This document shows positions 16,353-40,143 of a stretch of 53,375 nt of DNA, piece by piece. The notes beneath the pieces were generated by a model that did not search any database, was not told where the DNA came from, and was given only the letters and a program-made list of their open reading frames with translations. Position numbers and translations under genes: made by a program. Every line of letters starts with the position of its first letter. Position 1 is the stretch's first letter. Source of the stretch: a virus (lineage: Duplodnaviria; Caudoviricetes); the IMG/VR virus record IMGVR_UViG_3300032290_000786, positions 1-53,375 of that record, one strand, 5' to 3'.

Positions 16353-16476
16353 AAAGTTAAGGTTGAGGGTTTCTATATTTTTGATTTGTCAAATTTATAG
16401 AGGTCAATAATTGGATAGACAAATAGAGAGTTGTGGGTATAAGATTTTAGGTAACGATATAGGGACGGTGGTTTAT

Positions 16477-20928: not shown

Positions 20929-20961
20929 TTCTGTATAATGCATTCTTGAAAGGGAGGACTT

Positions 20962-24616: not shown

Positions 24617-24677
24617 ATGGTTTTATACTTGACCTACTAGACAGCCTAGTAGTTTTATGAAAGGACACAAGGACACA

Positions 24678-25142
24678 ATGTTAGACAAAGAAAAGAAAGT
24701 TCAAGGGGTAGCAGTTTATGCTGAGTTCCGCAAGCCGGGGCAAACTATGCAACTACTAATAACTCCTGACGCATATACAAACGCAGGAACTCTAATTCCT
24801 ATGGCACTCCACAGACGAGTTGTCACACCTATCACTCCAAAGAAACAATGGAAATCAACTTCCTTCCGCAACGCACAAGTCAAAGAACTTGTTGAGTCGG
24901 GAACAGGTGCAACGCTAGGTGACGACAGTATCTCTGCTTTCACAGATGAGCGAATTCGCTATGGACTCCCATACTTTGACGAAGTTCTAAATGGTGGTTG
25001 GACACTAGAGAACAAGCCAATCCTTACAGAAGTCTCGCGTCACGACGCAGACGATATAGCAAGAGGAAAGACACCTAATAAGGTTCTTTATCGTATTCAT
25101 ATTTCTCGGAAAGCACTCGGCTTTCCTGCGGAATTGGTATAA
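24678..25142 (+). CDS. hypothetical protein
   Basis: AAGGA RBS, after promoter 24600. Confidence 0.7.
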   Translation: MLDKEKKVQGVAVYAEFRKPGQTMQLLITPDAYTNAGTLIPMALHRRVVTPITPKKQWKSTSFRNAQVKELVESGTGATLGDDSISAFTDERIRYGLPYFDEVLNGGWTLENKPILTEVSRHDADDIARGKTPNKVLYRIHISRKALGFPAELV

Positions 25143-26216: not shown

Positions 26217-26236
26217 TTCCCCTGATTTCGTTGGTA

Positions 26237-26285
26237 GTGGGTTGGGGGTTGATTAGTGTCCTTTTCAGCCCCCACTCTTCCCCAC
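26237..26285 (+). other. 3'-UTR hairpin with pyrimidine-rich loop
   Basis: TGGGGGTTGA/TCAGCCCCCA stem, loop TTAGTGTCCTTT. Confidence 0.6.
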
Positions 26286-26370
26286 GCAGGATTTGACAAA
26301 AGGACAAACAAGTGAGATACTTGGTCTAACAAGTTAGGTTCGGAAGCCTGACAGAAAAGGGAAAAGACAA

Positions 26371-28164
26371 ATGACGCATTTCAAAAGTGGTGAAAGCAAG
26401 GCTCAGGCAACAAGCCCTGAGTGGTTGAAGGTTGGTAAAGATATTGGCTATATGGCAAACAAGTGGGCGTTACGCGACGACATTGTTGCCTATGTAGGTC
26501 CGGGCGCAGGTGGGAACGCACCTGCTTGCTTCAACATTTCCTCTGCGGAAATTGAAGTAAATGTTGATGTTGCTTTCGGCGCAGGTGTAAGTCCTGACGC
26601 GATTGGCGATATTACAACTCGCAAAGTTCAATACGAATTTCCTAGAGCAACAGGGGCAATTCTTCACGAAGCGTTTCACGCACGCTACTCACTATGGTCT
26701 CTGCCAAAAGCATACGAAGACCTAGAGAAAAATCAAAAAGTATTTGACGCATTAGTGCTACTTGAAGAAAGTCGCATTGAATATCAGGGTCTCCAAGCCA
26801 ATTCAAAGGCTCGTCCTTTCTTGCGTGCGAGCGCGATTGAACTTGCTATTGGCGACGCTAGAGAAGGCTTTGAAGTCAAGCAACCAACAATCGCTATCTC
26901 TAATCTAGTTGGATTAGTTCATAGTCGCATTGACGCAGGTATTCTTGACGCACACGAAGTTGCTGACATTGTTGAGTGGGTCAATACTCAAATTGACTCT
27001 GACAAAGTTACACAACTTCGCGACCTTGCTCGCTTGGCACAAATGCACGATAAGCATAGAGACGCAACAGAACTCTACCCAATCGCAAAAGAGTGGGTTC
27101 GCATTGTTGATGAAATTGCTAAAGAGCGTGGAGAAAACCCTGACGAAAAACCTGAGGGTTGTTTCCCAATTCCAAAAGAGTTAGCAGATAAGATTATGGA
27201 GATTATGAAGGAAGTTGGCGAAGAAGTTGAAATGAATAACTTCGGAGAACTTTCAGACCAAGAACAATCTGAGGACTTCAAGGAAGAAGCAAAGTCTCGC
27301 GCTGACGAGTCAAAGGAACAATTAGAGAACGAAGAAATTGCTTCTGAGGTCTTTGATAAATCTACTGGTGTTGGAACTTCTAAAACCAACAGCAGACTAA
27401 AAGAGACACGACAGCCAAACGCAGAAGAGCGTTCTGCTTCAGTTCGCATTGGCGAACTTATGGAGAAAGCAAAATATCGTGAGCGCGATATTACTGACAT
27501 AGATAGTCAGACACCTCCGGGGCGATTGAAAACTCGCGCCATTATTCAGAACAAGGCACTACGCGAACGCGGAGTTGTCTCTAGGGAAAATCCTTTCCGT
27601 AGAACTGTTCGCAAACAAACTGATGAACCAACACTCAATGTTGGCATTATGGTTGATATTAGTGGCTCAATGGGAAGTGCTATGAACCCTATGGCTACAA
27701 CTGCTTGGGTTATGTCTGAAGCAGTAAATCGTATTCAGGGCAACTGCGCTATGGTCTATTACGGAAATGATGTGTTCCCAACTCTAAAGGTTGGACAACG
27801 ACTTCCTGAAGTAAATGTTTATACTGCACCTGATGGAACTGAAAAATTCACGAAGGCGTTCAAGGCATTAGATGGAGAACTAAATCTTCTCTATGGAAAT
27901 GGCGCACGACTTCTTGTTATTGTTTCTGATGGACAATATACAAGTGAAGAAACAAGGAGTGCTAAAGAAATTATTCGCAAGTGCGAGAGTGCTGGCGTTG
28001 CAGTTCTATGGCTTCCCTTTGACTACGGCTCAGGTGCTAGAGAGATTGGACAAGGCTACGCAGAAATCGTGTCGGACATTACCGACCCTGCTGGTGCTTC
28101 CGAACTTATCGGTATGAAGGCTATGGAAGTTATGACTAGAGTTGGACAGAGGCAAGTTGCCTAA
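26371..28164 (+). CDS. VWA (MIDAS) protein with HExxH metallopeptidase-like N-terminal domain (CobT-like partner)
   Basis: HEAFH, EESRIE, DISGSM, VSDG; adjacent to the MoxR ATPase. Confidence 0.85.
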   Translation: MTHFKSGESKAQATSPEWLKVGKDIGYMANKWALRDDIVAYVGPGAGGNAPACFNISSAEIEVNVDVAFGAGVSPDAIGDITTRKVQYEFPRATGAILHEAFHARYSLWSLPKAYEDLEKNQKVFDALVLLEESRIEYQGLQANSKARPFLRASAIELAIGDAREGFEVKQPTIAISNLVGLVHSRIDAGILDAHEVADIVEWVNTQIDSDKVTQLRDLARLAQMHDKHRDATELYPIAKEWVRIVDEIAKERGENPDEKPEGCFPIPKELADKIMEIMKEVGEEVEMNNFGELSDQEQSEDFKEEAKSRADESKEQLENEEIASEVFDKSTGVGTSKTNSRLKETRQPNAEERSASVRIGELMEKAKYRERDITDIDSQTPPGRLKTRAIIQNKALRERGVVSRENPFRRTVRKQTDEPTLNVGIMVDISGSMGSAMNPMATTAWVMSEAVNRIQGNCAMVYYGNDVFPTLKVGQRLPEVNVYTAPDGTEKFTKAFKALDGELNLLYGNGARLLVIVSDGQYTSEETRSAKEIIRKCESAGVAVLWLPFDYGSGAREIGQGYAEIVSDITDPAGASELIGMKAMEVMTRVGQRQVA

Positions 28165-28175
28165 GTCCTAAAGAT

Positions 28176-28248
28176 GTCTCGGTTCGGGGCTGGTGCGTCC
28201 TTCCGAACGCTTTCCTCTCTCACCACAGGAACCGAACCGAACCGAGAC
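28176..28248 (+). other. 3'-UTR multi-stem hairpin
   Basis: GTCTCGGTTCGG/CCGAACCGAGAC outer stem, inner CU-rich segments. Confidence 0.6.
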
Positions 28249-28282
28249 CCTAGTAGCAAAAAGTAAAAACGAAAGGGAGAAG

Positions 28283-28681
28283 ATGCACTACAAACAAATT
28301 GTTGAAAGAGTCTATTCACATAGACCTTCACAAACAGATGCCGTCTTCTATCAAGGGCACGGCAAAGTTGCTGAGGTAGAGATAGACGGCTTCCGCGTCG
28401 CGGTTTATTGCGACGGGGATATGAGAGCAATTTACAATGAAGATGTTCTTAGGACAGCAAAAGACTTTACTGACCACGGATTAGATACGGACGAGAAACT
28501 AAAGAAGGCAACCGAAGACGGCGTTCTCTATTGGGATATGAACCCGTGGTTTGATTGCTACACACTTGAAGGCGAACACTTAGACATTGTTTGTGATGAC
28601 ATTGAGAACGCCATTGAAAGTGCGCTTGCCTATACCCAATCACAACGCGATAGCGAACTTGTGTTGCTTCAAGACTTCTAG
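28283..28681 (+). CDS. hypothetical protein
   Basis: GAAAGGGAG RBS; WDMNPWF. Confidence 0.7.
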   Translation: MHYKQIVERVYSHRPSQTDAVFYQGHGKVAEVEIDGFRVAVYCDGDMRAIYNEDVLRTAKDFTDHGLDTDEKLKKATEDGVLYWDMNPWFDCYTLEGEHLDIVCDDIENAIESALAYTQSQRDSELVLLQDF

Positions 28682-28757
28682 TTTTTATTTGCGGATAGAC
28701 TTGACAAGATAAAGTAAAAATGCAATAATAGGGTTCTACTTAGGGAAAGGTGGAAAA

Positions 28758-29291
28758 GTGCATACTTGCCAAATTATGTTGATAGAAGCAGATAGTGCCC
28801 AAGAGGCTCTTGACTATGCCAAATCAACAATTACATATGCGGAAACTGCATACCCTGCTTGGTCTGATTGGCACGGCGGGATTGACGATAACGACTTGGC
28901 TGGACGCTGGAGTGGTTTGTTTGAGGGCTGGGAAGAAACACGAAATGTTCTTTGCTATGCCGAGAACCCTATTCTTGCTGAAGATGTTATCAAGGACTTC
29001 TTAGATAATCGCATTACAGAAATGAAACAACTTCGTTGGTCTTTGACAGAGGTAAAAGATTTCTCTCTTGATAAGGCAGTAGAGGACTATGACCCATACA
29101 CGCTGGACTTCAAGGACAGTATGAACTTGTATCGCTATCAAGTATTGGTCAAACTTCTCAACAACGATTGGTGTTCAAGCACGGGCGTCTATGACTTGCA
29201 AGAGCATACGGCTCACCTTGAATACTTCAAGAAGAGAGTCGCGGAGAACCCTGAAAAACAATTCTTGGTTCCTATTGACTTTCACTTCTAA
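28758..29291 (+). CDS. hypothetical protein
   Basis: WSDW..G...GRWSG, C-terminal VPIDFH. Confidence 0.75.
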   Translation: MHTCQIMLIEADSAQEALDYAKSTITYAETAYPAWSDWHGGIDDNDLAGRWSGLFEGWEETRNVLCYAENPILAEDVIKDFLDNRITEMKQLRWSLTEVKDFSLDKAVEDYDPYTLDFKDSMNLYRYQVLVKLLNNDWCSSTGVYDLQEHTAHLEYFKKRVAENPEKQFLVPIDFHF

Positions 29292-29330
29292 TTTAGATAC
29301 AATACGGCTATCCACTAGAAAGGGAAACAA

Positions 29331-29570
29331 ATGGAAACAGAGTTTGGAAAAATGGTAGAAGAAACAACTTATGTTGTTGAGACACCTACTTGCCATATGT
29401 GTGGCAAGGGTGGCACGGTTGAAGTTCCTATGAAGGGATTTCTTATCCGACAACTTGGCGGACTTATTCAGGACGCCTATCCCGATTTAGATTTGGCGTT
29501 GCGTGAGCAAATGCTCTCAGGCACGCACCCTAAATGCTGGGAGACTATGACGGCAGGGTGGGAAGAGTGA
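29331..29570 (+). CDS. Zn-finger protein
   Basis: CHMCG, IQDAYPDL...REQMLSGTHPKCW. Confidence 0.75.
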   Translation: METEFGKMVEETTYVVETPTCHMCGKGGTVEVPMKGFLIRQLGGLIQDAYPDLDLALREQMLSGTHPKCWETMTAGWEE

Positions 29571-29707
29571 GTATTTGTTATAAGTGCGGTTGGGAACTAC
29601 GGCAAGACTTTGGTCTATGGACAGACAGCCTCAACGGAGTTGTCTGCGATTGGGTTGGTGGCGAGCCTTTCCCACACGAAGTAAAAGAAAATCTAGTTGC
29701 TGCATAA
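29567..29707 (+). CDS. small Cys-containing protein
   Basis: GTGA overlap; CYKCG; read manually. Confidence 0.45.
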   Translation: MSICYKCGWELRQDFGLWTDSLNGVVCDWVGGEPFPHEVKENLVAA

Positions 29708-29731
29708 CGGCAAGGACAGGAAAAAGTAAAA

Positions 29732-29977
29732 ATGAGAGTAAAAGATTTGATTGCACAACTGGGAAGTTATGACGGCGACACGGAGTTGATAGTTGCATAC
29801 TGGGATAAAGACACAGTAGAAGGCTACGCTTCAGGTTGGGGCGAGAAAGATAGGTTTGTTCTAACGGACGACCAATGGTCTAATGTTGTTGATATGTATG
29901 ATGACGGAGAGTGGCACTTCCAAAGTTCGGCTGCCGATACTCTTGTTGATTTAGCAAGAGAGGCTACCAATGAGTAA
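29732..29977 (+). CDS. hypothetical protein
   Basis: MRVKDLIAQL N-terminus; motif A abuts the start. Confidence 0.7.
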   Translation: MRVKDLIAQLGSYDGDTELIVAYWDKDTVEGYASGWGEKDRFVLTDDQWSNVVDMYDDGEWHFQSSAADTLVDLAREATNE

Positions 29978-30131
29978 AACTTGGAAAATAACTTTTGTCT
30001 CACACTTTGGGACAGAGGTAGTTTCTGAAACCCAAAGGGGTGCTGAAGCCCTTGCACAAGATTGGCTGGAGAACGAGTATGGACACGACCTTGCTCGCGC
30101 CACCGAAATTGAGGTTGAGGAAATCGTGTGA
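29970..30131 (+). CDS. small hypothetical protein
   Basis: GAGG RBS; read manually. Confidence 0.55.
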   Translation: MSKTWKITFVSHFGTEVVSETQRGAEALAQDWLENEYGHDLARATEIEVEEIV

Positions 30132-30142
30132 GTCAAATCACA
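30127..30142. promoter_or_regulatory. CRP/GlxR-type site
   Basis: Perfect TGTGA-N6-TCACA centred about 62 bp upstream of the predicted TSS of promoter 30164. Confidence 0.6.
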
Positions 30143-30267
30143 TAAAGAAATGTTTGTTTCAACTTGACTCTGTATCTGAAACCTGTATAATTCGTGTTAG
30201 TGGTTGAGAAGTTCTCTACTACGACAGGGTGAGAAGGTCTCTCCCAAATGACGAAAGGACAAGGGCT

Positions 30268-30696
30268 ATCACACAGCCAGCAAACGCTACTGCGATTAGC
30301 AGAGCAAAAATTACAGCACCTGCTGTAATTACAGAAACAACAGCAACAACTATTGAGACAACAACAAAGTATGTTGCTCTTGATACTGTTGCAGACATCG
30401 CTGATGTTCTCGCTAAGTTTGAGGACAACAAGAAGAAGACAAAGGACTTGGAAAAAGAATACGAGTCTCTAAAGTCTGAAATCTACACAGCACTTGGATA
30501 CCAAAAGATTGGAACTAAGTGGGTAGGAGTTGCTGAAGAAGGAACTCTTGCAGGGGTCTCTGTCGTAAAGGTAGAGAAGCAAATCCGAAATAATTTCAAT
30601 AAGGAAGATTTCCTTATGGCAAACCCTGAACTACTTGCAGTAGTTGAGAGTTTCACAACACCAAACGAAGTGTCTGTTCTAAAGACAGTTCGCTAA
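30268..30696 (+). CDS. hypothetical coiled-coil protein (start uncertain: ATC 30268 or GTG 30229)
   Basis: RBS AAAGGA lies 8 nt before an in-frame ATC. Confidence 0.65.
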   Translation: MTQPANATAISRAKITAPAVITETTATTIETTTKYVALDTVADIADVLAKFEDNKKKTKDLEKEYESLKSEIYTALGYQKIGTKWVGVAEEGTLAGVSVVKVEKQIRNNFNKEDFLMANPELLAVVESFTTPNEVSVLKTVR

Positions 30697-30705
30697 GGTC
30701 TAGAG

Positions 30706-30733
30706 AAGCCCCCACCGAAAGGTGGGGGTTTTT
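30706..30733 (+). terminator. intrinsic terminator
   Basis: GCCCCCACC-GAAA-GGTGGGGGTTTTT. Confidence 0.85.
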
Positions 30734-30772
30734 CACACTCAACAGGAAAAAGTAAAAAAGAAACAGGGGGCT

Positions 30773-31183
30773 ATGCCAAACAACAATCCACTTCCTAAAA
30801 AGAAGTTCAAGCACAATCCTTTTGATACAAAAGGAAAAGGGATACACACCTACGAACCTATTGGGTTTGTAACAGATGAAGGAGAAATCCTTATCAACGA
30901 AGAAACTGTATGGATACCTACTTGCTATGGTGGAAAACAGTTAGATGAAGAAGAACTTACCTACGCACTTATGAGCAATAGTAGTTATGACTTCTTTATG
31001 AAACTTCTTGGTATGAAGATAGGCACAGGCGCACCTCATAGGAATTGTCCTGATTGTGCGGTAATCAACTCGCAGGATTGGTTAGAGATGTCTGACTATA
31101 TGACGCTAGAAGAAATCTTCCAACAAGTTGATGAACAAAATCCTAAAGACCCTGATGATTGGTCTATGGACGAAGAAGACTAA
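30773..31183 (+). CDS. hypothetical protein
   Basis: AGGGGG RBS. Confidence 0.65.
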   Translation: MPNNNPLPKKKFKHNPFDTKGKGIHTYEPIGFVTDEGEILINEETVWIPTCYGGKQLDEEELTYALMSNSSYDFFMKLLGMKIGTGAPHRNCPDCAVINSQDWLEMSDYMTLEEIFQQVDEQNPKDPDDWSMDEED

Positions 31184-31240
31184 GACTTGACAAGATAAGT
31201 CTAGTTCGCTATACTTAGAGAAGAAAAGGGGGTTAGTCAA

Positions 31241-31507
31241 ATGACTAATGAAACAATAGAAGTAAAGGTAGATGCCCAAGAGGTTGCGTATCTACAAATG
31301 AGTTTGGCGTTACTTATCACTATGCTCGGTAGTGATATGGAAGAGTGGCAGAACAAAAAAGACTCTTCTATGGATAAGATGTTTATGCTTATGGAAACAA
31401 AACTTGGCGTTATGAACTTATGGCGTAAGGTTTTGATTACTGCGGGTGCTGACCCTGAAGAGTTAGCACGCCATATCATTGAGTCGGGGGATAACGAAAA
31501 TGGCTGA
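31241..31507 (+). CDS. hypothetical protein
   Basis: Promoter 31187 plus RBS. Confidence 0.65.
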   Translation: MTNETIEVKVDAQEVAYLQMSLALLITMLGSDMEEWQNKKDSSMDKMFMLMETKLGVMNLWRKVLITAGADPEELARHIIESGDNENG

Positions 31508-31730
31508 ACACCATTACATAATCAAGTTTGACGACATAACACAAGAGTGGTCGCAAGATGTAGATAGCGAAGAGGTGCGGTTTCCTGATGGAACTATTTG
31601 GGAAGAGGCAACTGATGAGTGGTTCTACCCATACATTGGCGAAGGTGAGTTTTACCGAAAGGCTGATGAGATTGACGAGCGACTTGGAAAAGTTGTGTCT
31701 ATGCTCAACGAGCAAGAGGGAGTTGAGTAA
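31500..31730 (+). CDS. hypothetical protein
   Basis: Overlapping operon. Confidence 0.65.
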   Translation: MAEHHYIIKFDDITQEWSQDVDSEEVRFPDGTIWEEATDEWFYPYIGEGEFYRKADEIDERLGKVVSMLNEQEGVE

Positions 31731-31966
31731 TGGATAATATAAATCTTTCACGAACAGTAATGTTCGTTGGTGATTACTTTACTCTTATGACCACAGTTGT
31801 TTTAGACGACAGCCTTCGTAATGAGGGTGAAGGAAATAACGACTTTGCGGTTCGCTTGGCTTCCGTATTCATTAGTGAATACTACGGCTTTGATGTTGCG
31901 TCCGTGTCTAATGACATTGGCGTAGTTGATGAAGGCGGTGAAGAGGTAGATGATGAGCAGTCTTGA
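31730..31966 (+). CDS. hypothetical protein
   Basis: TAATG coupling. Confidence 0.65.
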   Translation: MDNINLSRTVMFVGDYFTLMTTVVLDDSLRNEGEGNNDFAVRLASVFISEYYGFDVASVSNDIGVVDEGGEEVDDEQS

Positions 31967-32294
31967 TTTGTTCGTAGATTTTGCTGACAAGTTGGATAGC
32001 GGTGAGTTGGATACTAAACTTTCTGAGATTAGAAAACTTGTTGAGGCGCGGTATGCCCTGACTAAGCAAAAAGTAAAAATTGACGACTTCGCTGTCGGGG
32101 ATAGAGTTTCTATCAACGATAGATGTGGAACTAAGTATTTAGTTGGTGAGTTGGCAACTGTTACTGATATACGAAGAACTAAAATCAAAATTACCTTTGA
32201 CAATCCTAAGGGTAGATTTGCTCGGACTAACTCGGCTGGGCAAACTTATTCTGCGGAAGTAATCGTGCCATTGGAAATTGTTGATAAAATATAA
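31950..32294 (+). CDS. SH3/KOW-like hypothetical protein
   Basis: F.VGDRVSI...YLVG..ATV...RTK. Confidence 0.65.
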   Translation: MMSSLDLFVDFADKLDSGELDTKLSEIRKLVEARYALTKQKVKIDDFAVGDRVSINDRCGTKYLVGELATVTDIRRTKIKITFDNPKGRFARTNSAGQTYSAEVIVPLEIVDKI

Positions 32295-32301
32295 GCATTG
32301 A

Positions 32302-32390
32302 CTTGCCGTGTCCCCCCCTTTCTCACGGCAAGGCATAGAGCGTTTGCTCGCTCCGATAACCCCCTCTCACCTGTCTGAGTTGGGGTTATT
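32302..32390 (+). other. three consecutive 3'-UTR hairpins, the first with an anti-SD-like loop
   Basis: CTTGCCGTG-TCCCCCCCTTTCT-CACGGCAAG; GAGCG/CGCTC; ATAACCCC/GGGGTTAT. Confidence 0.65.
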
Positions 32391-32460
32391 GTGTTTCATT
32401 ACTTGACAAATAAAAACCTATGCTGTATGCTTACGACAACAAGGAAAGGGGGAAAATCAA

Positions 32461-32676
32461 ATTCCAAAATACACAGATGTAATACCAAAATATCCTGATG
32501 TAGAAGTTGCTCTTGTAGGAGAAGATGGCAACGCGGTAGCAATAATGGGACGAGTCGCTTCGGCTCTCCGTCGTGCTGGCGTATCTTCAGAAGAGATAAA
32601 CGAGTATCTTGACGAAAGTATGGCGGGCGATTACAACAATGTTCTTCGCACCGCTATGAAGTGGGTAGCCGTATAA
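32461..32676 (+). CDS. conserved actinophage small protein, probable non-ATG (ATT) start
   Basis: LVGEDGNA.AIMGRV..ALRRAG...GDYNNVL...KWV; promoter 32403 and RBS precede ATT. Confidence 0.65.
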   Translation: MPKYTDVIPKYPDVEVALVGEDGNAVAIMGRVASALRRAGVSSEEINEYLDESMAGDYNNVLRTAMKWVAV

Positions 32677-32693
32677 CCACGGCTCACGCTTAG

Positions 32694-32727
32694 GAAGCCC
32701 CTGCCTTACGGCGGGGGTTTCTTTTTT
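32694..32727 (+). terminator. intrinsic terminator
   Basis: GCCCCTGCC-TTAC-GGCGGGGGTTTCTTTTTT. Confidence 0.85.
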
Positions 32728-32767
32728 GTCCAAATCACCCCTTCAGATTTAGATTACTCTTTCAGGT

Positions 32768-33013
32768 ATGGATATTGTTTCTAAAGACTTTCACGCTAAT
32801 GGCTCTGGCGCACCCTTTATGGTGGCTATTGTTGATGACCCGAAAGACGGAGACACGAAACTTGTCATAATGTTTGACGAGCCTGACTTTACGGCTGTCC
32901 TTTCGCTAGACTACTTGTTGAGAGATGAAGATATTTCTTCTAGATACAACGGGCACGATGGGGCAAGATACGAAAAACTTCGTGAAGATTTGTGGGACGG
33001 GTTTGTAAGTTAG
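32768..33013 (+). CDS. hypothetical protein
   Basis: H.NG.GAPF motif. Confidence 0.7.
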   Translation: MDIVSKDFHANGSGAPFMVAIVDDPKDGDTKLVIMFDEPDFTAVLSLDYLLRDEDISSRYNGHDGARYEKLREDLWDGFVS

Positions 33014-33040
33014 CAAAAAGTAAAAAAGAGAGGGAAGAAG

Positions 33041-33610
33041 ATGACAACAATTGCTGCAATTCAAGGTGAGACTTGGGCTGTCGTCGGCTACGACTCTCGC
33101 GTTACTGAAGAGGGCGACAAGATTTACTCTCTGCCAAAAGACAATGGCAAGTTGTTCAAGAACGGTAATTATCTTCTTGGCGCGGCTGGCGATATGAGAG
33201 CAGTGAATTTGCTGGCTTATGTGTTCAAGCCACCTGTAATAAGCCCAACAACTTACGGAGTCAAACTTGATAAGTTTATTTCTACTTCCTTTATACCTGA
33301 ACTGAAGAAATGCTTTGAGGAAGCCTCATACTCAAAAGATGGCGACCAAGACTCTCAAGTTATGTGTATAGTCAATGGAACTATCTACGAAATAGGAAAT
33401 GACTATTCGTGGGCACGAGATGAGACTGGCGTATATGCCATAGGCTCGGGTAGTGCATACGCACTCGGCGCACTTATAGCAACCCTAGAAACTAGGAAAC
33501 GAACTCTTGCTACGGCGAAGACGCTTGTGAGACAAGCAATAACTATCGCTTCCAAACTTGACCCAAGCACGGCTCCGCCTATTTATGTAAATGTGCAACA
33601 CTTCGGATAA
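33041..33610 (+). CDS. Ntn hydrolase, HslV/proteasome-beta-like (paralog of 327-869)
   Basis: M-TTIAAIQG, DSRVT, AIGSGS.YALGAL. Confidence 0.75.
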   Translation: MTTIAAIQGETWAVVGYDSRVTEEGDKIYSLPKDNGKLFKNGNYLLGAAGDMRAVNLLAYVFKPPVISPTTYGVKLDKFISTSFIPELKKCFEEASYSKDGDQDSQVMCIVNGTIYEIGNDYSWARDETGVYAIGSGSAYALGALIATLETRKRTLATAKTLVRQAITIASKLDPSTAPPIYVNVQHFG

Positions 33611-33668
33611 CTTGACTCTATAGTTTCTTGGTGCTATTGTTTGGTTACACCGAACGAAAGGACACCTA

Positions 33669-33794
33669 GTGATAAACCAAGATAACAATGGTCTTGAATA
33701 TGACCCTTGGTCTGAAGACGAAGAAGATGCGGTTGAGCAAGAATTAGATGTTGAAGAGGACAAAGGACACGAAATGTGGCTAGGTCTTGAATAA
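33669..33794 (+). CDS. small acidic protein
   Basis: Promoter 33612, GAAAGGA RBS, downstream terminator. Confidence 0.5.
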   Translation: MINQDNNGLEYDPWSEDEEDAVEQELDVEEDKGHEMWLGLE

Positions 33795-33809
33795 ATAATT
33801 TCTTTACAG

Positions 33810-33845
33810 AAAACCCCCGTGCAAATGTGCGGGGGTTTTTTCTTT
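33810..33845 (+). terminator. intrinsic terminator
   Basis: AAAACCCCCGTGC-AAAT-GTGCGGGGGTTTTT. Confidence 0.85.
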
Positions 33846-34015
33846 CTGGCCGGCGTTCGCCGGTTCGGAAACTACAAACAACTTCAGAACTTCCACAGCG
33901 CAGAGGAGTGAATTTTTACTTTTTGCTATTGACGATGCTGCCCACTAGCCATCTTGGTAAATAAATTGTTGATAGATACTTGACTTCAGTTTGCATAATT
34001 GCTATACTACGGTTA

Positions 34016-34094
34016 TTCAGTAGGGGGAAAGTCGCTGGTCACCTGAACGCTCGGAACGCTAGCGGGGCGGAAACAATACGACTCCCCTACTGAA
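34016..34094 (+). ncRNA. structured leader / small RNA starting at predicted TSS
   Basis: 11-bp stem TTCAGTAGGGG/CCCCTACTGAA with inner AGTCG/CGACT and CGCTC/GGGCG stems; follows promoter 33980. Confidence 0.45.
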
Positions 34095-34117
34095 CCTAAC
34101 TAGAAAAGGGGAACAAT

Positions 34118-34363
34118 ATGGACTTGCTAACTATGGTGCAGGTAGATGCTCACTTGAAAGGGAATGTCTATCCACCGATGCCGCAATATCTTGAACAGGC
34201 TATTGAAGCCGTAGAAAACTGCCGTGAAGGTAATGGCGATGCTATCGTTACTTTACCTACAGATATGAAGCCACTACCAAACTGCGCCGTAAAAACAGAT
34301 GCAGGTTATGCAATTACTTCAGAAGAGTTATCTCTGATACTGAACCTAGAAAGTCTTATCTAA
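34118..34363 (+). CDS. hypothetical protein
   Basis: HLKGNVYPP; strong RBS. Confidence 0.7.
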   Translation: MDLLTMVQVDAHLKGNVYPPMPQYLEQAIEAVENCREGNGDAIVTLPTDMKPLPNCAVKTDAGYAITSEELSLILNLESLI

Positions 34364-34421
34364 TACTTGACTTGCACGGAAAGATAAGTTACACTATCAA
34401 TACCTTAGGAAAGGGGTAAAA

Positions 34422-34805
34422 GTGGATACACTTGAAAAACTAGTAGTTACTCTCCAAAGTGACTGCACCTGCAGTAATGAAGATGAAACTCCGGCGAGCG
34501 ATTGCTTCGGTTGTTGGGACGACTCGGTTGAATACTTCAAAGAAGTTATCTCAACTTGGCGTGAGCGTGCGGGTATTGACGCAGACCTTGTTCGTATCGA
34601 AGGCAGAGGAATGACTTGGCAGAGCCTAAGTGGCCACGCTATCACCAACCTAGATACTCTCTACAAGGCTCTCACAATAAACGGGGACTTTAGACTTACC
34701 TTCACCCTAGAGGGTGAAACACTCACTGCAACACGCCATAGCCACGATGAACCTATGGGTTGTTCGTTCGCCTTCGCTCCACACGAGAGGGAAGACGAAG
34801 ACTAA
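34422..34805 (+). CDS. hypothetical protein
   Basis: CTC...CFGCW, SHDEPMG. Confidence 0.75.
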   Translation: MDTLEKLVVTLQSDCTCSNEDETPASDCFGCWDDSVEYFKEVISTWRERAGIDADLVRIEGRGMTWQSLSGHAITNLDTLYKALTINGDFRLTFTLEGETLTATRHSHDEPMGCSFAFAPHEREDED

Positions 34806-34815
34806 GAATACAGAG

Positions 34816-34850
34816 ATAGCCCCTCGCGGAAAACGCGGGGGGTTATTTTT
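34816..34850 (+). terminator. intrinsic terminator
   Basis: TAGCCCCTCGCG-GAAAA-CGCGGGGGGTTATTTTT. Confidence 0.8.
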
Positions 34851-35041
34851 ATGCCCAAAAGTTATTCGCAAGTGGGCTGCCGCCAGGGGAGTATTTTTAC
34901 TTTTTGCTAAAGCCGGCTGCCGGGTCCGGTGCGGAACTACAAACAACTAAAAATAAATAAAAGATTTTTCCAAATGGACTTGACAGAATGAAAAGTAGGC
35001 GAGTATAATCTGCCATAACAACAAAGAAAGGGGGAAACCTT

Positions 35042-35197
35042 ATGGACAGAAAAAAGTTGATAGCAAAGATTGTCAATGAGCAAATGGACGAAGCCGTTAC
35101 ATACTCACCTACATCTTTTGCTTACGCAATGAGCGAGGTTGAATATCGCCTTGACTCACTACTACGCCTTCGCCCCACAAAGAATTTTAGCGAATAA
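35042..35197 (+). CDS. small hypothetical protein
   Basis: Promoter 34980, AGAAAGGGGG RBS. Confidence 0.55.
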   Translation: MDRKKLIAKIVNEQMDEAVTYSPTSFAYAMSEVEYRLDSLLRLRPTKNFSE

Positions 35198-35230
35198 GGG
35201 ATAGACCCGTTGGGCGCGGGTCGCTATCTC

Positions 35231-35266
35231 GGATAACCCCCCTTCGTGGTGGTTGGGGGGTTATCC
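35231..35266. terminator. strong hairpin, probable terminator
   Basis: GGATAACCCCCC/GGGGGGTTATCC. Confidence 0.65.
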
Positions 35267-35352
35267 ACCTAAAAAAGATTTTTCTAAATAGACTTGACAA
35301 AACAAAACACCAAATGCTAGAATACTCACACACCAACAGAAAGGGTTACAAA

Positions 35353-35595
35353 ATGAAAAAACTCATTTTGGTAAAAAACTCCGACGGACAGCGCGGAGCA
35401 AATGGCAAGAAAAAGATTTACGAGATTGTCGTAGTTGATAATCGCGTAATCACATCTTGGGGTAAGGCAGAAGAACTCCATAAGCAACAGACCCAAACAA
35501 AAGTCTTTGCTTCATCACAGCAAGCACTTTGGTTCGCTTTTGATAAGCAAATGGCGAAAGAAGCCAAAGGCTACGAATTAGTAGCAAGCCTCTAA
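35353..35595 (+). CDS. WGR-domain protein
   Basis: KKIYEI......VITSWGK......Q.K.F......K...K.AKGY. Confidence 0.7.
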   Translation: MKKLILVKNSDGQRGANGKKKIYEIVVVDNRVITSWGKAEELHKQQTQTKVFASSQQALWFAFDKQMAKEAKGYELVASL

Positions 35596-35610
35596 AAATT
35601 GAATAAGGGG

Positions 35611-35638
35611 AGCCCCGCAGAAATGCGGGGTTTCTTTT
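35611..35638 (+). terminator. intrinsic terminator
   Basis: GCCCCGCA-GAAA-TGCGGGGTTTCTTTT. Confidence 0.85.
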
Positions 35639-35667
35639 ACAAAAACGAGAATAGGAAAAAGTAAAAA

Positions 35668-35781
35668 ATGATGAACTTGAATGATTATCTAAATGGAAAA
35701 GTTGTTCCTGTATGCGATGAATGTAAAAAAGAACTTAGCCCAGACGAACTAGGCTACGGACACGATTGCGAGGTAGCGTAA
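35668..35781 (+). CDS. small Cys/His protein
   Basis: CDEC...GHDCE; TAATG coupling. Confidence 0.5.
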   Translation: MMNLNDYLNGKVVPVCDECKKELSPDELGYGHDCEVA

Positions 35782-36134
35782 TGATTGATTTTGATTTAGT
35801 AGAAGAAAGAGTGAGCGAGGCTAAGGCTATTGCTTGGGATACTTGCCACAAGATTTATTTGCTAATGGACGATAAGCAGGTAGAACTAATGCGCGAGTAT
35901 GGATACGACCCACTTATTACTAATGCGGAAGCAACACCTGAAAAGATGTTAGAACTTCTAAAAGAGTGGTTCGAGGGTTCTTGCGGTCTTAGATTTATTG
36001 ATGCGGTGAGCACCCACCCAACAGACCCGAACAAGGGGTTTGAAACTCTCATAGGGCAGGGCGACTATGACCTTGAAGAAGAAGACACGCCACAAGGCGC
36101 ACAGATTATAGATTTGACATACAAGCCTATCTAA
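35781..36134 (+). CDS. hypothetical protein
   Basis: IAWDTCHKIYLLMD, WFEGSCGLRFI. Confidence 0.75.
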   Translation: MIDFDLVEERVSEAKAIAWDTCHKIYLLMDDKQVELMREYGYDPLITNAEATPEKMLELLKEWFEGSCGLRFIDAVSTHPTDPNKGFETLIGQGDYDLEEEDTPQGAQIIDLTYKPI

Positions 36135-36171
36135 TGTTACTATTGGTCTTAGAAAGAAAGGGGAATACCAA

Positions 36172-36354
36172 ATGGGTATCGCAATAGGCACAACAATTAC
36201 AGTAACTTTTGATGCACGCCAGATAGCACAACTTGATTGCGTTCTTCAAGAGTTTGAAATGATGAACTACAAAGAAGAAACAGAACACCAGAAGATAAAT
36301 GTTGAGAGAGTCAATAACATCTTCAAGGCACTACACGAGGCAGGATACAGATAA
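36172..36354 (+). CDS. hypothetical protein
   Basis: Promoter 36114 plus RBS. Confidence 0.6.
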   Translation: MGIAIGTTITVTFDARQIAQLDCVLQEFEMMNYKEETEHQKINVERVNNIFKALHEAGYR

Positions 36355-36482
36355 TGCGTAAGGTCTTGGAAGATGGGCTAACAGTATGCACGCCTTGCGG
36401 TGATGGCATAGATGGTGCGCTCATAGATTTTGAGGTAGAACGAAACGAAGCAGAACCAGACTGCGACTTTTGCGGAAAGTGA
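36354..36482 (+). CDS. small Zn-finger protein
   Basis: CTPC...CDFC; TAATG coupling. Confidence 0.5.
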   Translation: MRKVLEDGLTVCTPCGDGIDGALIDFEVERNEAEPDCDFCGK

Positions 36483-36545
36483 TTTGACTTTCATATTTAT
36501 GTATAGTATGATTTGATTATCAAGGAAAGCGAGGGGGGTGAACAA

Positions 36546-36770
36546 ATGATAACTTTCGGAGATTATGTAAATTGGGTAGAGCCTAATGGCAACTACACTA
36601 ACTACTGTATTCAATGCGGACGCAAGACAGGTAAGAACGCTTATCTAGTAAATGTGTCCACAAGCGGTGCGGTTCTACACCCAGCAAGCGAGGCAGACTC
36701 ACAAGGGTTCTGGCAGATAGGCAGAGAGTGTGCAAAGGAATTTGACCAAGGCGCACTAGTCAAGAACTAA
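36546..36770 (+). CDS. Zn-finger protein
   Basis: CIQCGRK...IGRECAK. Confidence 0.7.
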   Translation: MITFGDYVNWVEPNGNYTNYCIQCGRKTGKNAYLVNVSTSGAVLHPASEADSQGFWQIGRECAKEFDQGALVKN

Positions 36771-36787
36771 ATAAAATTGAAAAAGAC

Positions 36788-36817
36788 AGCCCCAGAGAAA
36801 TCTGGGGTTTTCTTTTT
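36788..36817 (+). terminator. intrinsic terminator
   Basis: GCCCCAGA-GAAA-TCTGGGGTTTTCTTTTT. Confidence 0.85.
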
Positions 36818-36926
36818 GAGGCTGTAGCAAAAAGTAAAAACTCACCAAGATGGCTAGTGAGGTTCTGAAATTGTTTATAGTTGAAAACACCTAGCCACTA
36901 AATCAGAAAATCTCACAGAAAAAAGA

Positions 36927-36942
36927 TGTGAGTTACTTCACA
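36927..36942. promoter_or_regulatory. CRP/GlxR-type site
   Basis: Perfect TGTGA-GTTACT-TCACA in intergenic DNA. Confidence 0.55.
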
Positions 36943-37085
36943 GTAAAAATGTCCGTTTTGTCTTTACACTTTTTTCGCTAAGGGTTTTTACCTTTTCAAC
37001 TACAAACAACTTATGGACTTCAAGGGTCAAAACTTGACAAGTCTTCATCTAATGTCCTATACTTATAGAAACGAAAGGAAAACTA

Positions 37086-37307
37086 ATGAAGTATCTACTA
37101 CACCTACACCCCGCCGAGAGGCGTGCCTATAAGATTATCGCCTATGTAATAGGTGCGGTTCTACTATTTGTTCTTTTGCTTGACGCCTCTGCGCTAGGGC
37201 TTATCGTGTTCTTCGCTATGGGTTGGTATGCCAAGAGCAAGTATGACCTCAAACAAAAGAAGATAGCCAAGAAGAAAAAGAAGATAGAAGCACTTGACAA
37301 GCAATAA
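37086..37307 (+). CDS. membrane protein
   Basis: Hydrophobic core, basic tail; promoter 37034. Confidence 0.65.
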   Translation: MKYLLHLHPAERRAYKIIAYVIGAVLLFVLLLDASALGLIVFFAMGWYAKSKYDLKQKKIAKKKKKIEALDKQ

Positions 37308-37353
37308 TCAGTATGCTACACTTATAGCATAAGGACAACGAAAGGGGAAAGAA

Positions 37354-37536
37354 ATGAAGGGATTACCTGATAGTGCGGTTGTTGGAACATACAAGCGTGC
37401 TAAGCACTATGCTCGCAAAAATCGTGGTGGTTCTCTAAAACAATGTAAGCGCGAGGAAGAAATTGTTTTCAACGCATTATTCAACCTCACAGTATTCGGA
37501 TTGAGCAAGATTGTGAGTTTGACAAAGAAGAACTAA
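37354..37536 (+). CDS. hypothetical basic protein
   Basis: Promoter 37294 plus RBS. Confidence 0.6.
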   Translation: MKGLPDSAVVGTYKRAKHYARKNRGGSLKQCKREEEIVFNALFNLTVFGLSKIVSLTKKN

Positions 37537-37575
37537 TTTGCTAGACTTACACCAATGACGAAAGGAAAAAGTAAA

Positions 37576-38163
37576 ATGGATAAAGATTTAGATGTAGAGG
37601 GTCTTAGCAGAGACGAACAGTTAGAGAAGTTTCAGGCTAACCTAAAAGAACTTGCACGACCAACTTATGACTTTGAGAGTTACGGACTAGAAGATTTGTG
37701 GTCTGAAGTCCTTCCCGGCCTATGGCAGGGTGGAACAGACGACTTTGATACTATCTACGAAGCAACTCCATACACTCCAACAGAAGAAACACCTATTGGG
37801 ATTACCAAGAAGGACTTTGATGTCGTAGTACCAGCCTATGCGTGGGCTAAGCCTGTTGATTGGGGCGTCAAGGAAGTCCGATTTGGTTTCTATGACGCGG
37901 ATATGAGCGACATAAATATGGGTGCTGTCTATCGTATTGTCAATGACATACACGCCGATTGGAAGCGTGGAGATAAGGTTCTAGTGCGCTGTCAGGCTGG
38001 CTGGAATCGTTCAGGACTAATCACAGCACTAATCCTTATGAAAGAGGGTTATACGGCTGATGACGCGATTTCGTTGATTAGAAAGAAGCGAAGTCCTCAC
38101 GCATTATGTAACAAGAAGTTTGAGAAGTTTCTTCGGGAACTTCCACCCTTCCCAAAGAAGTAA
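37576..38163 (+). CDS. dual-specificity / protein-tyrosine phosphatase family protein
   Basis: Catalytic CX5R loop VLVRCQAGWNRSG; AISLIRKKRS..ALCN..F. Confidence 0.9.
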   Translation: MDKDLDVEGLSRDEQLEKFQANLKELARPTYDFESYGLEDLWSEVLPGLWQGGTDDFDTIYEATPYTPTEETPIGITKKDFDVVVPAYAWAKPVDWGVKEVRFGFYDADMSDINMGAVYRIVNDIHADWKRGDKVLVRCQAGWNRSGLITALILMKEGYTADDAISLIRKKRSPHALCNKKFEKFLRELPPFPKK

Positions 38164-38322
38164 GAGCAAGGGCTGGCATAGGAAAAAGTAAAAACCTATC
38201 CAGCCCTTTGCTGTTTCTCAACGACACGCCGAAAGTCAGGAAGGTTTGACAAAAGGTCAGGAAGGCTGTAATCTTAGGGTATTAGTAAAAGTTACTAATA
38301 AGCAAGAAAGGGAAATGACGAA

Positions 38323-38505
38323 ATGATAATGCTAATGGATAAGAAGTTTATTGTTCGCAGACGAATTGCTTTTGCTGTTGCTGTTGTTTCTGCGGTTGCT
38401 TTACTAGCACTCGCAACTATTGGTTTAGACCATCTCAACTGGGTTGGCGATGGTTACTGCTTCAAGTCAAGTCTTGAGTGTTACTTTCCTGAAGGGGGGA
38501 AGTAA
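38323..38505 (+). CDS. small membrane protein
   Basis: RRR followed by TM; W.G.GYC.....C. Confidence 0.65.
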   Translation: MIMLMDKKFIVRRRIAFAVAVVSAVALLALATIGLDHLNWVGDGYCFKSSLECYFPEGGK

Positions 38506-38729
38506 TGCGAATAACTAAAAAAGGAAATGCTTTTATCAAAGACAGAGAAAAACTAAGCACACCTCGTGCGGAATTTTTACTCAAGTTCGCTTCTATGAGC
38601 GATGAACAGTTTGAGAAATGGTCTGAACTGGAAACAAGTGCTGAAGCAAGAGCATTTATGTCAGCAATACCAATGCCTCAAATGAAAACAAATGAAGTAT
38701 TTATCAAACTAGAAAAACAAGAGAGTTAG
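38505..38729 (+). CDS. hypothetical protein
   Basis: TAATG coupling. Confidence 0.6.
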   Translation: MRITKKGNAFIKDREKLSTPRAEFLLKFASMSDEQFEKWSELETSAEARAFMSAIPMPQMKTNEVFIKLEKQES

Positions 38730-38741
38730 GATAAAGTAAAA

Positions 38742-38909
38742 ATGGTTCTAGATACAGGCACACTTATTGGAATTACGATTGCGCTCGCAAGTTCTTGCAT
38801 AGTTATGGTTATCTCTATACGCTCTCATCGGGAGTTGTTACAAGAGAACAAAGCCTTGAAGGCACTACTTCGTGCCGAAAGAGAAATCAAGAGAGGGGGA
38901 AATAACTAA
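38742..38909 (+). CDS. small TM plus coiled-coil protein
   Basis: Read manually; coupled to the next ORF. Confidence 0.55.
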   Translation: MVLDTGTLIGITIALASSCIVMVISIRSHRELLQENKALKALLRAEREIKRGGNN

Positions 38910-39076
38910 TGGAAGAAATTACAACGACAGACGCCGCTTGCGGTTTCACTTGCCAGTTTGAGTGGATTGAAGTTTCATCAAACTTCTTCAACATCTCATT
39001 CTATACTCCAACACTAATCGCTGGACTAGTTGGATACTTTATCTATCGAGTAATCAAGAGAGCAAAGGGTAAGTAA
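38909..39076 (+). CDS. small membrane protein
   Basis: Read manually; TAATG on both ends. Confidence 0.55.
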   Translation: MEEITTTDAACGFTCQFEWIEVSSNFFNISFYTPTLIAGLVGYFIYRVIKRAKGK

Positions 39077-39543
39077 TGACAAAGCCAACTTGGGACAAAC
39101 TAGTTGAGGCAACACCTATGCACAATGGGAAACTTGTCGAACTAGAGCCTAACCAAACTTTCTGGCACAACAAGTTCTATGTAGTTGTGCGGACAGTCCT
39201 TGAACCTGAACTAGGGGAAAAGAGTGGTCTTCACCTGTCTATCCGACACCAAGAACGAAAAGCAATTCGGGATTGGCGACACTTTCAGCGCATCAAAAAC
39301 GAACTCGCTGGGGCAGAACGAGAAGCCGTAGAAATCTTCCCGCCTGAGTCCCAACTTGTTGATACTGCTAACCAGTATCACCTCTGGGTTCTTCCTGAAG
39401 GAACTACAAGTTTCTTTACTTGGAAGGACGGACGCCACGTTACGGACAATGCACAAGACCCCGAGACTGCTCAATGGTTGCGGGACAAAGGTATTGACCC
39501 ACAATTCACACAGAACTCTGTTCAGCGTCCGCAGGAGGAGTAA
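39076..39543 (+). CDS. conserved phage protein
   Basis: HLSI, DWRHFQRIKNEL.G...EAVEIFPPESQLVDTANQYHLW. Confidence 0.75.
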   Translation: MTKPTWDKLVEATPMHNGKLVELEPNQTFWHNKFYVVVRTVLEPELGEKSGLHLSIRHQERKAIRDWRHFQRIKNELAGAEREAVEIFPPESQLVDTANQYHLWVLPEGTTSFFTWKDGRHVTDNAQDPETAQWLRDKGIDPQFTQNSVQRPQEE

Positions 39544-39746
39544 TGGCAAAAAGTAAAAACATCGCAGAATCTGCGGCACAACTCTACGAAGGTGGGTTGT
39601 CTGTAGATGGTGTCGCTTCAGAACTAAAAGTCTCTTACAGATGTGCCCGTAGGGCTATCAAAAGTAGAGGCGTAATTTTACGAGACCCTTCAGCGCGGTT
39701 GAAGGGGAGAACTTCCCCTAAGAAGAAAAGGACAACAAATGAATAA
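39543..39746 (+). CDS. small HTH DNA-binding protein
   Basis: LYEGGLSVDGVASELKVSY......KSRGVILR. Confidence 0.75.
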   Translation: MAKSKNIAESAAQLYEGGLSVDGVASELKVSYRCARRAIKSRGVILRDPSARLKGRTSPKKKRTTNE

Positions 39747-39891
39747 CCTCAACATAGTTTGGACTGCCGTAGCAACTATAGGCTTCGGACTTGCTTCTTT
39801 TCTCGCTGCGTGGCAGAATAGTGTTGCTTGGTCTATCAGTCTAGGATTGTCAGCCGTTGCGTCAGCAACGCTGGCTAGCCGAGAGAAGTAG
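39739..39891 (+). CDS. small two-TM protein
   Basis: Read manually; AAAGGA RBS. Confidence 0.55.
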   Translation: MNNLNIVWTAVATIGFGLASFLAAWQNSVAWSISLGLSAVASATLASREK

Positions 39892-39912
39892 GTCAGGCTA
39901 CCTCCAAAGCGC

Positions 39913-39951
39913 AAGACCCTCTACTACCTTCCTCTGTAGGGGGTTTTGTTT
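39913..39951 (+). terminator. intrinsic terminator with CU-rich loop
   Basis: GACCCTCTAC-TACCTTCCTCT-GTAGGGGGTTTTGTTTT. Confidence 0.7.
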
Positions 39952-40029
39952 TGGCGTGTCGCTTGACTTAGTATAAATAGTGATGTAGTCTATGACTATC
40001 AAAGAAAAACTCAAGAAGGGGGTTTTTAG

Positions 40030-40143
40030 ATGAAAACCAAGAAAGAACAAATCATTTACATAAACTGCTGGAAATGCGGTCAAGTCTTTGCCACGCCTGA
40101 GCGTGAGTATAGAAATGGGCTCATTTGTGAGAAGTGTTACTAA
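40030..40143 (+). CDS. small Zn-ribbon protein
   Basis: CWKCG...CEKC; promoter 39963 plus RBS. Confidence 0.55.
   Translation: MKTKKEQIIYINCWKCGQVFATPEREYRNGLICEKCY

Follow-up and report, generated by a model that had tools for sequence, protein, structure and literature searches.

Very few single genes are known in which the two ends of a bacterial messenger RNA (mRNA), 3' and 5', pair with each other. The closest known case in function is icaR of Staphylococcus aureus, in which the untranslated region at the 3' end (3' UTR) pairs with the Shine-Dalgarno region of its own mRNA, so that initiation is blocked and a substrate for RNase III is formed (PMC3868564). Here we describe four hairpin sites with large pyrimidine loops (sites A to D) in the early region of an uncultured freshwater phage, carried by the IMG/VR virus record IMGVR_UViG_3300032290_000786; the whole stretch analyzed, 53,375 bp, is called the window. 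As in icaR, a C-rich motif at the 3' end has its complement in the Shine-Dalgarno region of the mRNA that carries it, and the proposed outcome is likewise a block of initiation together with a double-stranded nuclease substrate. Unlike icaR, the phage elements stand at several operons, their motif lies in a hairpin loop after a stop codon or in a terminator, and they are aimed at the first cistron of a polycistronic unit, in some lineages outside the Shine-Dalgarno region.

Among the families of Rfam is one named 6C. The actinobacterial 6C small RNA (sRNA) binds mRNAs through C-rich loops without chaperones (PMC6486639), and the phage hairpins resemble it in design, not in membership, by their C-rich apical loops (the first hairpin, HP1, of site C, and in relatives also the second, HP2). 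They differ in being mRNA 3' ends and not free-standing genes, and in loops that combine a C-run with a U-run, whereas 6C loops hold C only. At the gathering threshold, Rfam recognized only transfer RNA (tRNA) in the whole window, and cmscan of positions 26150-40050 at E <= 10 returned 15 weak, chance-level terminator look-alikes and no 6C. With no Rfam family matching them, the elements are therefore not members of any curated RNA family. The UCCC-motif sRNAs of S. aureus (RsaA-K, RNAIII; PMC2790875) also aim unpaired C-rich loops at Shine-Dalgarno sequences; those are, however, trans-acting host sRNAs with regulons, whereas the phage complementarity is operon-specific and phage-encoded. In Escherichia coli, terminator loops of sRNAs control fepA, 'likely without base-pairing', in an Hfq- and RNase E-dependent manner (PMC11979758). 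We propose a similar role of an intrinsic terminator loop as regulatory determinant for site D and for the third hairpin (HP3) of site C, although here base pairing is suggested by covariation. To our knowledge, actinobacteria lack Hfq.

The elements also share features with regulatory 3' UTRs and 3'-UTR-derived sRNAs, in which a conserved seed adjoins a shared terminator at the 3' end of an mRNA (reviewed in PMC5502269). What sets those apart is that they are processed or stable species, while the phage elements are described here from sequence. In phage T7, RNase III processing hairpins lie between early genes, and site B resembles them in being long, irregular, placed between early cistrons and free of a T-run. 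We know of no T7 site with a loop complementary to its own leader, in contrast to the lake phages described here, and a search of the window, of two relatives with 95-100% completeness (G001, G002) and of the named relative DSL-LC01 turned up no RNase III of phage origin. No phage elements of this kind are described in the literature searched, including the excerpted DSL-LC01 paper; supplementary files lay outside that search.

The window (CheckV completeness 40%, G+C content ~43%) corresponds to 40% of the length of a full phage genome of ~130 kb. Deposited phages gave no nucleotide match to it, as judged by megablast of positions 26000-34000 against the phage collection; relatives were reached through protein comparison, not nucleotide comparison. 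The 597-amino-acid (aa) protein encoded between sites A and B led to 32 related viral contigs (41-70% identity). Its best named relative belongs to Actinomycetia phage DSL-LC01 (45% identity, 99% of the query), a 129-kb genome assembled from a lake metagenome, the host of which was predicted as Actinomycetia via hostG and iPHoP (PMC10611076). Since an AAA_5 ATPase gene lies upstream of the 597-aa gene, the two are taken as a CobS/CobT-like pair; the DSL-LC01 counterparts are annotated as AAA family ATPase (CobS-like) and 'cobalamin biosynthesis protein' (CobT-like). Farther matches to the 597-aa protein were to Microbacterium and Gordonia phages.

Complementarity of loops to the leaders of their own operons

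Loops and leaders were compared among representatives of 14 lineages, namely the window and L001, L004, L005, L010, L013, L015, L019, L021, L022, L023, L024, L032 and L033, with near-duplicates (L002, L003, L006-L009, L011, L012, L014, L016-L018, L020, L025-L031) left out. The measure was the longest exact complement, used instead of duplexfold energies over whole 3' regions, which were dominated by the stems and discriminated poorly (P = 0.035). At site B, the 130 nt after the CobT-like stop codon were set against leaders from -70 to +3. The mean match to the lineage's own leader reached 9.29 nt versus 6.85 nt for the leaders of other lineages, a result equaled in 0 of 20000 permutations. The own leader ranked first, ties included, in nine of the 14 lineages, and the match measured at least 9 nt in 9/14. 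Four controls (the final 130 nt of coding sequence, a stretch from inside the coding region, the 130 nt that follow farther downstream and a same-sense comparison) showed no excess for self (2341, 13238, 5909 and 14008 of 20000 permutations), with matches of at least 9 nt in 0-1 of 14 lineages. The matching segments lie in apical loops, mostly opposite the Shine-Dalgarno region, and the own-leader match is unique in the locus of L022 (13 nt), L032 (12 nt) and L033 (13 nt). For L015, a 10-nt match is tied with two other 10-nt matches in the locus away from the cobT leader, and in L024 a second loop covers the start codon of its own gene (8 nt). Taken singly, the 9-mers carry per-lineage P values of 0.03-0.06.

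A second operon behaved in the same direction. The match of site A to the leader of the operon's first gene (homologue of the gene at 24678-25142) averaged 7.71 nt for self and 6.58 nt for cross comparisons (5/20000 permutations), and 10 of 14 lineages had a best pair that linked a hairpin loop to the leader or start region. From one lineage to another the paired sequences bear no relation, and several are not Shine-Dalgarno sequences; the target is the start codon in L032 and lies 18-27 nt upstream in others. When sites A and B were swapped within each genome, the own pairings won in 12/14 lineages, by a mean difference of 3.4 nt (one-sided Wilcoxon P = 0.0015; sign test P = 0.0065). As measured by exact complements, these comparisons show co-evolution between the loops and their own operon's leader at two operons. 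A small leader hairpin followed by a T-run was also seen at 24634-24652, just before the stretch complementary to the loop of site A, so that this target may lie directly behind a 5' stem-loop.

At site C, the HP1 loop matches the Shine-Dalgarno stretch of the operon's first gene over 8-10 nt in seven of eight lineages. As in icaR, sites B, A and C thus have a 3' UTR segment that complements the start region for translation of its own mRNA, and covariation of both partners was maintained in evolution at A and B, while at C self matches do not exceed cross matches. In the window itself, the complement of site B is the apical part of a hairpin in the CobT-like leader, not its Shine-Dalgarno stretch, and the interaction would be a loop-loop contact. 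This leader hairpin is retained in L001, L004, L010 and L019. A kissing loop is favored by a single compensatory change, which separates the window from L001 or L019, and opposed by one case, that of L004 and L010, making the covariation suggestive only.

Structure and conservation of the hairpins

The regions of sites A, B, C and D fold more stably than dinucleotide shuffles of themselves (z = -3.6, -2.7, -5.8 and -3.7). A G+C-rich stem with a direct T-run, as in an intrinsic terminator, was found only at site D and, weakly, at HP3 of site C. A T-run is missing from sites A and B and from HP1 of site C, which are therefore not intrinsic terminators. At all four sites the loops span 11-18 nt, outside the 3-8 nt scanned for short-loop terminators. 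The site A hairpin ends 19 nt before the -35 element of the next promoter, and site B contains an inner mini-hairpin (28195-28210, loop 28199-28206) followed by a second pyrimidine stretch at 28211-28220.

All four hairpins are conserved in position among the relatives. The site A hairpin is kept in the interval from the CobS-like stop codon to the promoter that follows, together with the second hairpin (site A0), which includes the stop codon and has a pyrimidine loop. Site B is represented in 14/14 lineages by a strong hairpin with a pyrimidine-rich apex right after the CobT-like stop codon; its inner loop is kept in lineages with as little as 48% protein identity, and many lineages add a second hairpin with an 11-14-nt loop of a C-run and a U-run. 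At site D, the 11-nt loop is identical on four different stems (L034, L041, L044, L046/L047), while another lineage (L035-L037, L040) has two hairpins with different C/U loops in its place. A conserved single-stranded seed adjoining a terminator, as known from 3'-UTR-derived sRNAs, was thus found in these phages.

Site C was followed as a three-hairpin element after homologues of a 114-aa gene. A covariance model seeded with seven relatives found the window (E 4.5e-7) and L001, L003, L013, L031 and L014, all of them absent from the seed. MAFFT alignments were out of register in HP1 and were replaced by a model-fitted alignment. In its 14 rows, 89.2% of the cells pair, against 72.7% after shuffling (0/500), and compensatory changes occur in 23 of 32 pairs versus 14.3 ± 2.0 expected (0/500), values to be read with the fit to the model favoring structure; with the partners slid by 1-3 columns, pairing fell to ~44%. 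The C-rich cores of the HP1 and HP2 loops are constant while the stems vary, and the HP1 motif is lost in L013 and L031.

Strong hairpins were also counted in 15 representatives of the 14 lineages (L005 and L007 forming one lineage group), on a strand with 44.9% pyrimidines. Among loops of 10-22 nt, 42 of 174 held at least 70% pyrimidine and 19 of 174 at most 30%; for loops of 3-6 nt the corresponding counts were 28/171 and 59/171. A whole-genome census of both strands covered the window, G001 and G002. Large pyrimidine loops were carried by 3/5 sense-strand hairpins in the window, 6/13 in G002 and 2/13 in G001, versus 0/6, 2/14 and 2/11 antisense-strand hairpins, respectively, and all six sense loops of G002 fall inside one 16.5-kb early block (80.7-97.2 kb). 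As judged by comparison among relatives, these data show the four hairpins to be selected RNA-level elements. The distant cultured relatives Microbacterium phage Pumpernickel and Gordonia phage Sixama have neither a pyrimidine loop nor an own-leader match (5 nt each) after the homologous gene, and the loop feature appears confined to the lake phage group.

Two further observations concern hairpins of this region. A strong 12-bp hairpin at 35231-35266, 28 nt upstream of a promoter at 35294, has a 12-nt G/U-rich loop resembling the G/U-rich loops of the site A hairpins of L013, L018, L019 and L032. In addition, a 14-nt A-rich motif is present in 26 copies (at most two mismatches; 13 exact) between 18442 and 44613, where 1.5 were expected (0/100 shuffles). 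Examples are found at 19703, 22487, 28256, 33013 and 36827, with reverse copies at 33913, 34894, 41475, 42926 and 44032. The copies are mostly in sense orientation, directly after hairpins or terminators or immediately before start codons, and one forms the loop of a terminator at 38165-38210. The motif is also found in the relatives, at times as a hairpin loop; it could act in processing, enhance translation or be a phage-specific promoter element.

Features of the window

Between 14.7 and 42 kb the genes lie on the + strand, and sigma-70-type promoter matches at 10 or more of 12 positions number 18 on the + strand versus two on the - strand. The features around the four sites are collected in Table 1.

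Table 1. Positions of the hairpin sites, their operons and neighboring signals in the window
Feature	Position	Strand	Remarks
Promoter-like site	24600		Upstream of gene 24678-25142
First-gene leader and start region	24657..24680	+	Operon ending at the 26.2-kb hairpins; gene 24678-25142
9-nt complement of the 26253 loop	24660-24668	+	In leader of gene 24678-25142
AAA_5 ATPase gene (CobS-like)	25164..26216	+	Second gene of the operon; PF07728, E 4e-19
Site A0 hairpin	26201..26235	+	Spans CobS-like stop codon; 15-nt loop, mostly pyrimidine
Site A hairpin	26243..26274	+	10-bp stem; 12-nt loop 26253-26264; no T-run
Sigma-70-type promoter of CobT-like gene	26293..26321	+	10/12 matches; kept in relatives
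CobT-like leader hairpin	26333..26352	+	Apical part 26338-26346 complements the 28200 loop over 9 nt
CobT-like gene, 597 aa	26371..28164	+	Homology to DSL-LC01; no Pfam match
Site B	28176..28248	+	Long irregular hairpin 12 nt past stop codon; no T-run
Promoter and leader of operon 31241-32294	31187..31243	+	Shine-Dalgarno stretch 31225-31232 is the 8-nt complement of the 32311 loop
Site C, three-hairpin 3' element	32295..32397	+	
Site C HP1	32302-32332	+	13-nt all-pyrimidine loop 32311-32323 with a run of seven C
Site C HP2	32338-32353	+	Loop short in the window
Site C HP3	32354-32391	+	Followed by a short T-rich tail
Site D	39911..39949	+	Intrinsic terminator; 14-bp stem, T-run; 11-nt pyrimidine loop 39925-39935
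Canonical terminators	22372, 30705, 32692, 33810, 34817, 35610, 36788, 41833	+	

Elsewhere in the window, ARAGORN and Rfam both found a tRNA-Gly gene (anticodon TCC) at 7913-7985 on the - strand, and a class II (B12-dependent) ribonucleotide reductase is encoded at 10788-12842 (-). Other recognizable products are a weak proteasome/HslV-like protein (33041-33610), a dual-specificity phosphatase domain (37576-38163), DUF7694 (39076-39543), an SLT-type lysozyme (40358-40966) and DUF3846 (42997-43332, -), as well as an open-ended open reading frame (ORF) of more than 1431 aa (49081-53373) with an RNase_T exonuclease domain close to its end. A 522-nt A+T-rich gene-free gap at 15952-16479 contains several direct and inverted copies of an iteron-like repeat of ~12 nt and, located at the switch from - to + strand genes, is a candidate replication origin. 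The 1.1 kb at 19861-20964 hold no convincing + strand gene according to our own caller and have a very stable fold, with a recurring short motif, four -35-like hexamers and an overlap with the - strand ORFs 20083-20448 and 20448-20711; this stretch may hold - strand genes or a non-coding RNA.

Proposed pairing of transcript ends and rival explanations

Operon-specific, co-evolving complementarity between loop and leader leads to RNA-RNA pairing of the transcript ends as the simplest account. In this account the elements are conserved 3'-end or intercistronic RNA structures at a subset of the early operons of a DSL-LC01-like freshwater actinophage, each with a large, mostly C/U loop that complements its own unit's first cistron in the leader or ribosome-binding region. 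We give about an even chance (roughly 50%) to the reading that an icaR-like 3'-5' pairing self-limits these early mRNAs. Once RNA polymerase finishes the operon, the 3' loop would become available to base-pair with a start region, either that of its own molecule or that of a sister molecule. Such pairing would hinder 30S binding and possibly yield a substrate for a double-strand nuclease, by analogy with the icaR mRNA (PMC3868564). Because the 3' loop exists only after full transcription, translation of the first cistron would be largely confined to the period of synthesis: most translation of an early mRNA would take place during its synthesis, after which the molecule would close itself. Pairing in the RNA, repression rather than stabilization, and the cis or trans mode are what we infer from these patterns.

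The original prediction had drawn its case from complementarity inside the window, and all the loop and complement strings that it quoted, with their coordinates, were correct. The 26253 loop has 9-nt complements at 24660 and 33657, plus a third at 33762; an 11-nt complement of 28196 lies at 41502 and a 9-nt complement of 28200 at 26338. The 10-mer at 28211 recurs on the + strand at 43338, which on the - strand is the ribosome-binding site of the DUF3846 gene (TTG start at 43332), and the 32311 loop has complements at 35025 (10 nt), at 32444 (9 nt) and also at 36155. The statement that early operons end in such hairpins went too far: large pyrimidine loops are present only at 26.2, 28.2, 32.3 and 39.9 kb, and the + strand between 22 and 42 kb has at least eight canonical 3' terminators with 4-5-nt loops and T-runs. 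As for complementarity of the loops to phage start regions, the matches exist. A complement of at least 7 nt to the 32311 loop occurs in 18 of 74 start regions versus 1 of 74 internal control windows, and duplexes at -10 kcal/mol or better in 27/74 versus 3/74. Within the window, however, they do not go beyond composition, as shuffled loops pair alike: in duplex energy, real versus shuffled loops gave P = 0.02 for the 26253 loop and P = 0.10-0.72 for the four remaining pyrimidine-rich loops of sites A-D. With no gain over shuffled loops and the 26253 loop marginal, complementarity within the window was dropped as evidence. Comparison among relatives was kinder to the prediction: the loop conservation that it had named as a check was found at all four sites, and the matches to the own operon and own leader received the strongest comparative backing through the covariation at sites A and B.

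Several results weigh against self-pairing of the early messages. Ordinary terminators end most early operons, and shuffled versions of the 32311 loop with the same composition matched a mean of 6.4 and a maximum of 18 start regions. The site D loop (39925) has no complement of at least 7 nt among the 74 start regions of the window, and the best partner of the window's site B (11 nt) is the start region of another gene, at 41502. Across lineages, the own-leader match of site B is weak or absent in four of 14 (L001, 7 nt; L010, 6 nt; L021, 7 nt; L024, 6 nt). The loop of L021 instead matches the start regions of two upstream cluster genes over 9 nt, and the 12-mer target of L023 precedes four genes, a generic match. 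At site C, cross matches equal self matches because the leader itself is conserved. The 14 lineages are mutually related, their grouping is ours and their gene starts come from our own crude caller. Of three sequencing runs recovered, two were RNA libraries (freshwater metatranscriptomes) with 6% of the sampled words, in contigs of 151-398 nt at depths of 2-3.5; too short and shallow for transcript ends, strand or abundance to be read from them, these speak neither for nor against pairing.

The original prediction saw the elements as stable, trans-acting 3'-UTR sRNAs with generic anti-Shine-Dalgarno loops that shut off early phage and host mRNAs and spare leaderless ones. Global shut-off as the main role found no support, and we regard this explanation as quite unlikely, since the complementarity is operon-specific within genomes and lineage-specific between them, several lineages pair with leader sequence other than the Shine-Dalgarno region, and each site retains its own distinct loop. 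Furthermore, among 62 window start regions with a recognizable Shine-Dalgarno stretch, 17 have a four-G run and four the canonical five-base core, from which C-run loops would suit phage sites over canonical host sites. The many start regions matched by the 32311 loop speak for such sRNAs all the same, as do the recurrence of the loop target at several genes in L023 and L004, the likeness of site C, with its two conserved C-rich loops and a terminator of its own, to a three-hairpin RNA that stands free, and the actinobacterial precedent of sRNAs with C-rich loops (PMC6486639). It is also unlikely, in our view, that the large pyrimidine loops serve a protein as sites of recognition or cleavage, be it a host single-strand endoribonuclease with a preference for C-rich loops or an RNA-binding protein, setting the processing or decay of early polycistronic RNA, with the complementarity to purine-rich leaders as a by-product. 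Actinobacterial RNase E prefers single-stranded C, the loop sequences are stricter than generic pairing requires, shuffled loops pair as well as real ones, and site B is intercistronic and lacks a T-run, like a processing site; the conserved A-rich motif, also shown beside or in loops, suggests a display function of loops. Own-leader covariation specific to lineage and operon would not be expected of a by-product, however, and neither would the matches to leader segments that are not purine-rich. The window, G001, G002 and DSL-LC01 yielded neither a cold-shock-domain protein nor an RNase III encoded by the phage; host proteins may take that part.

That the hairpins are ordinary terminators or stabilizing structures, their loop content due to composition and chance, fits site D, a bona fide terminator, and single 9-nt matches are within reach of shuffled sequence, with which the loop shuffles agree. 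This explanation is very improbable given that the loops are conserved while the stems covary, that pyrimidine loops are in excess on a purine-rich strand, that sites A, B and HP1 of site C have no T-run, and that the self-versus-cross and swap tests are positive where the negative controls are flat. An 8-13-bp inverted repeat at both ends of a unit would formally fit the data as well, as short inverted repeats bounding mobile early-gene cassettes or as paired operator sites. We attach hardly any credence to a function at the DNA level. Without exception the 3' copy occupies the single-stranded loop of a hairpin on the sense strand, with the 5' copy in a transcribed leader or start region, and no recombinase context was seen. 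The hairpins are also strand-specific through their G-U pairs: those on the - strand of G002 at 95-97 kb were missed by a census of the + strand and found by the two-strand census.

Pairing of 3' and 5' ends is in itself known; the new aspect would be pairing of the icaR type in a phage, repeated at several operons. If the self-limiting reading is wrong, the conserved pyrimidine loops still mark an unrecognized recognition signal on early phage transcripts. If it is true, the early region of an abundant, uncultured phage group follows a repeated, co-evolving design rule, with naturally covarying loop-leader pairs ready for reporter tests and a new conserved three-hairpin 3' element whose covariance model could be used in lake virome annotation. 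It is possible, though on balance doubtful, that this freshwater actinophage family builds 'self-closing' early messages, their loops written operon by operon for the leader of the first gene. Completed transcription would then close an mRNA on itself or on its sisters, and early protein synthesis would be timed and capped by an RNA-only shut-off, giving these phages a timing mechanism for early gene expression that requires no phage protein.

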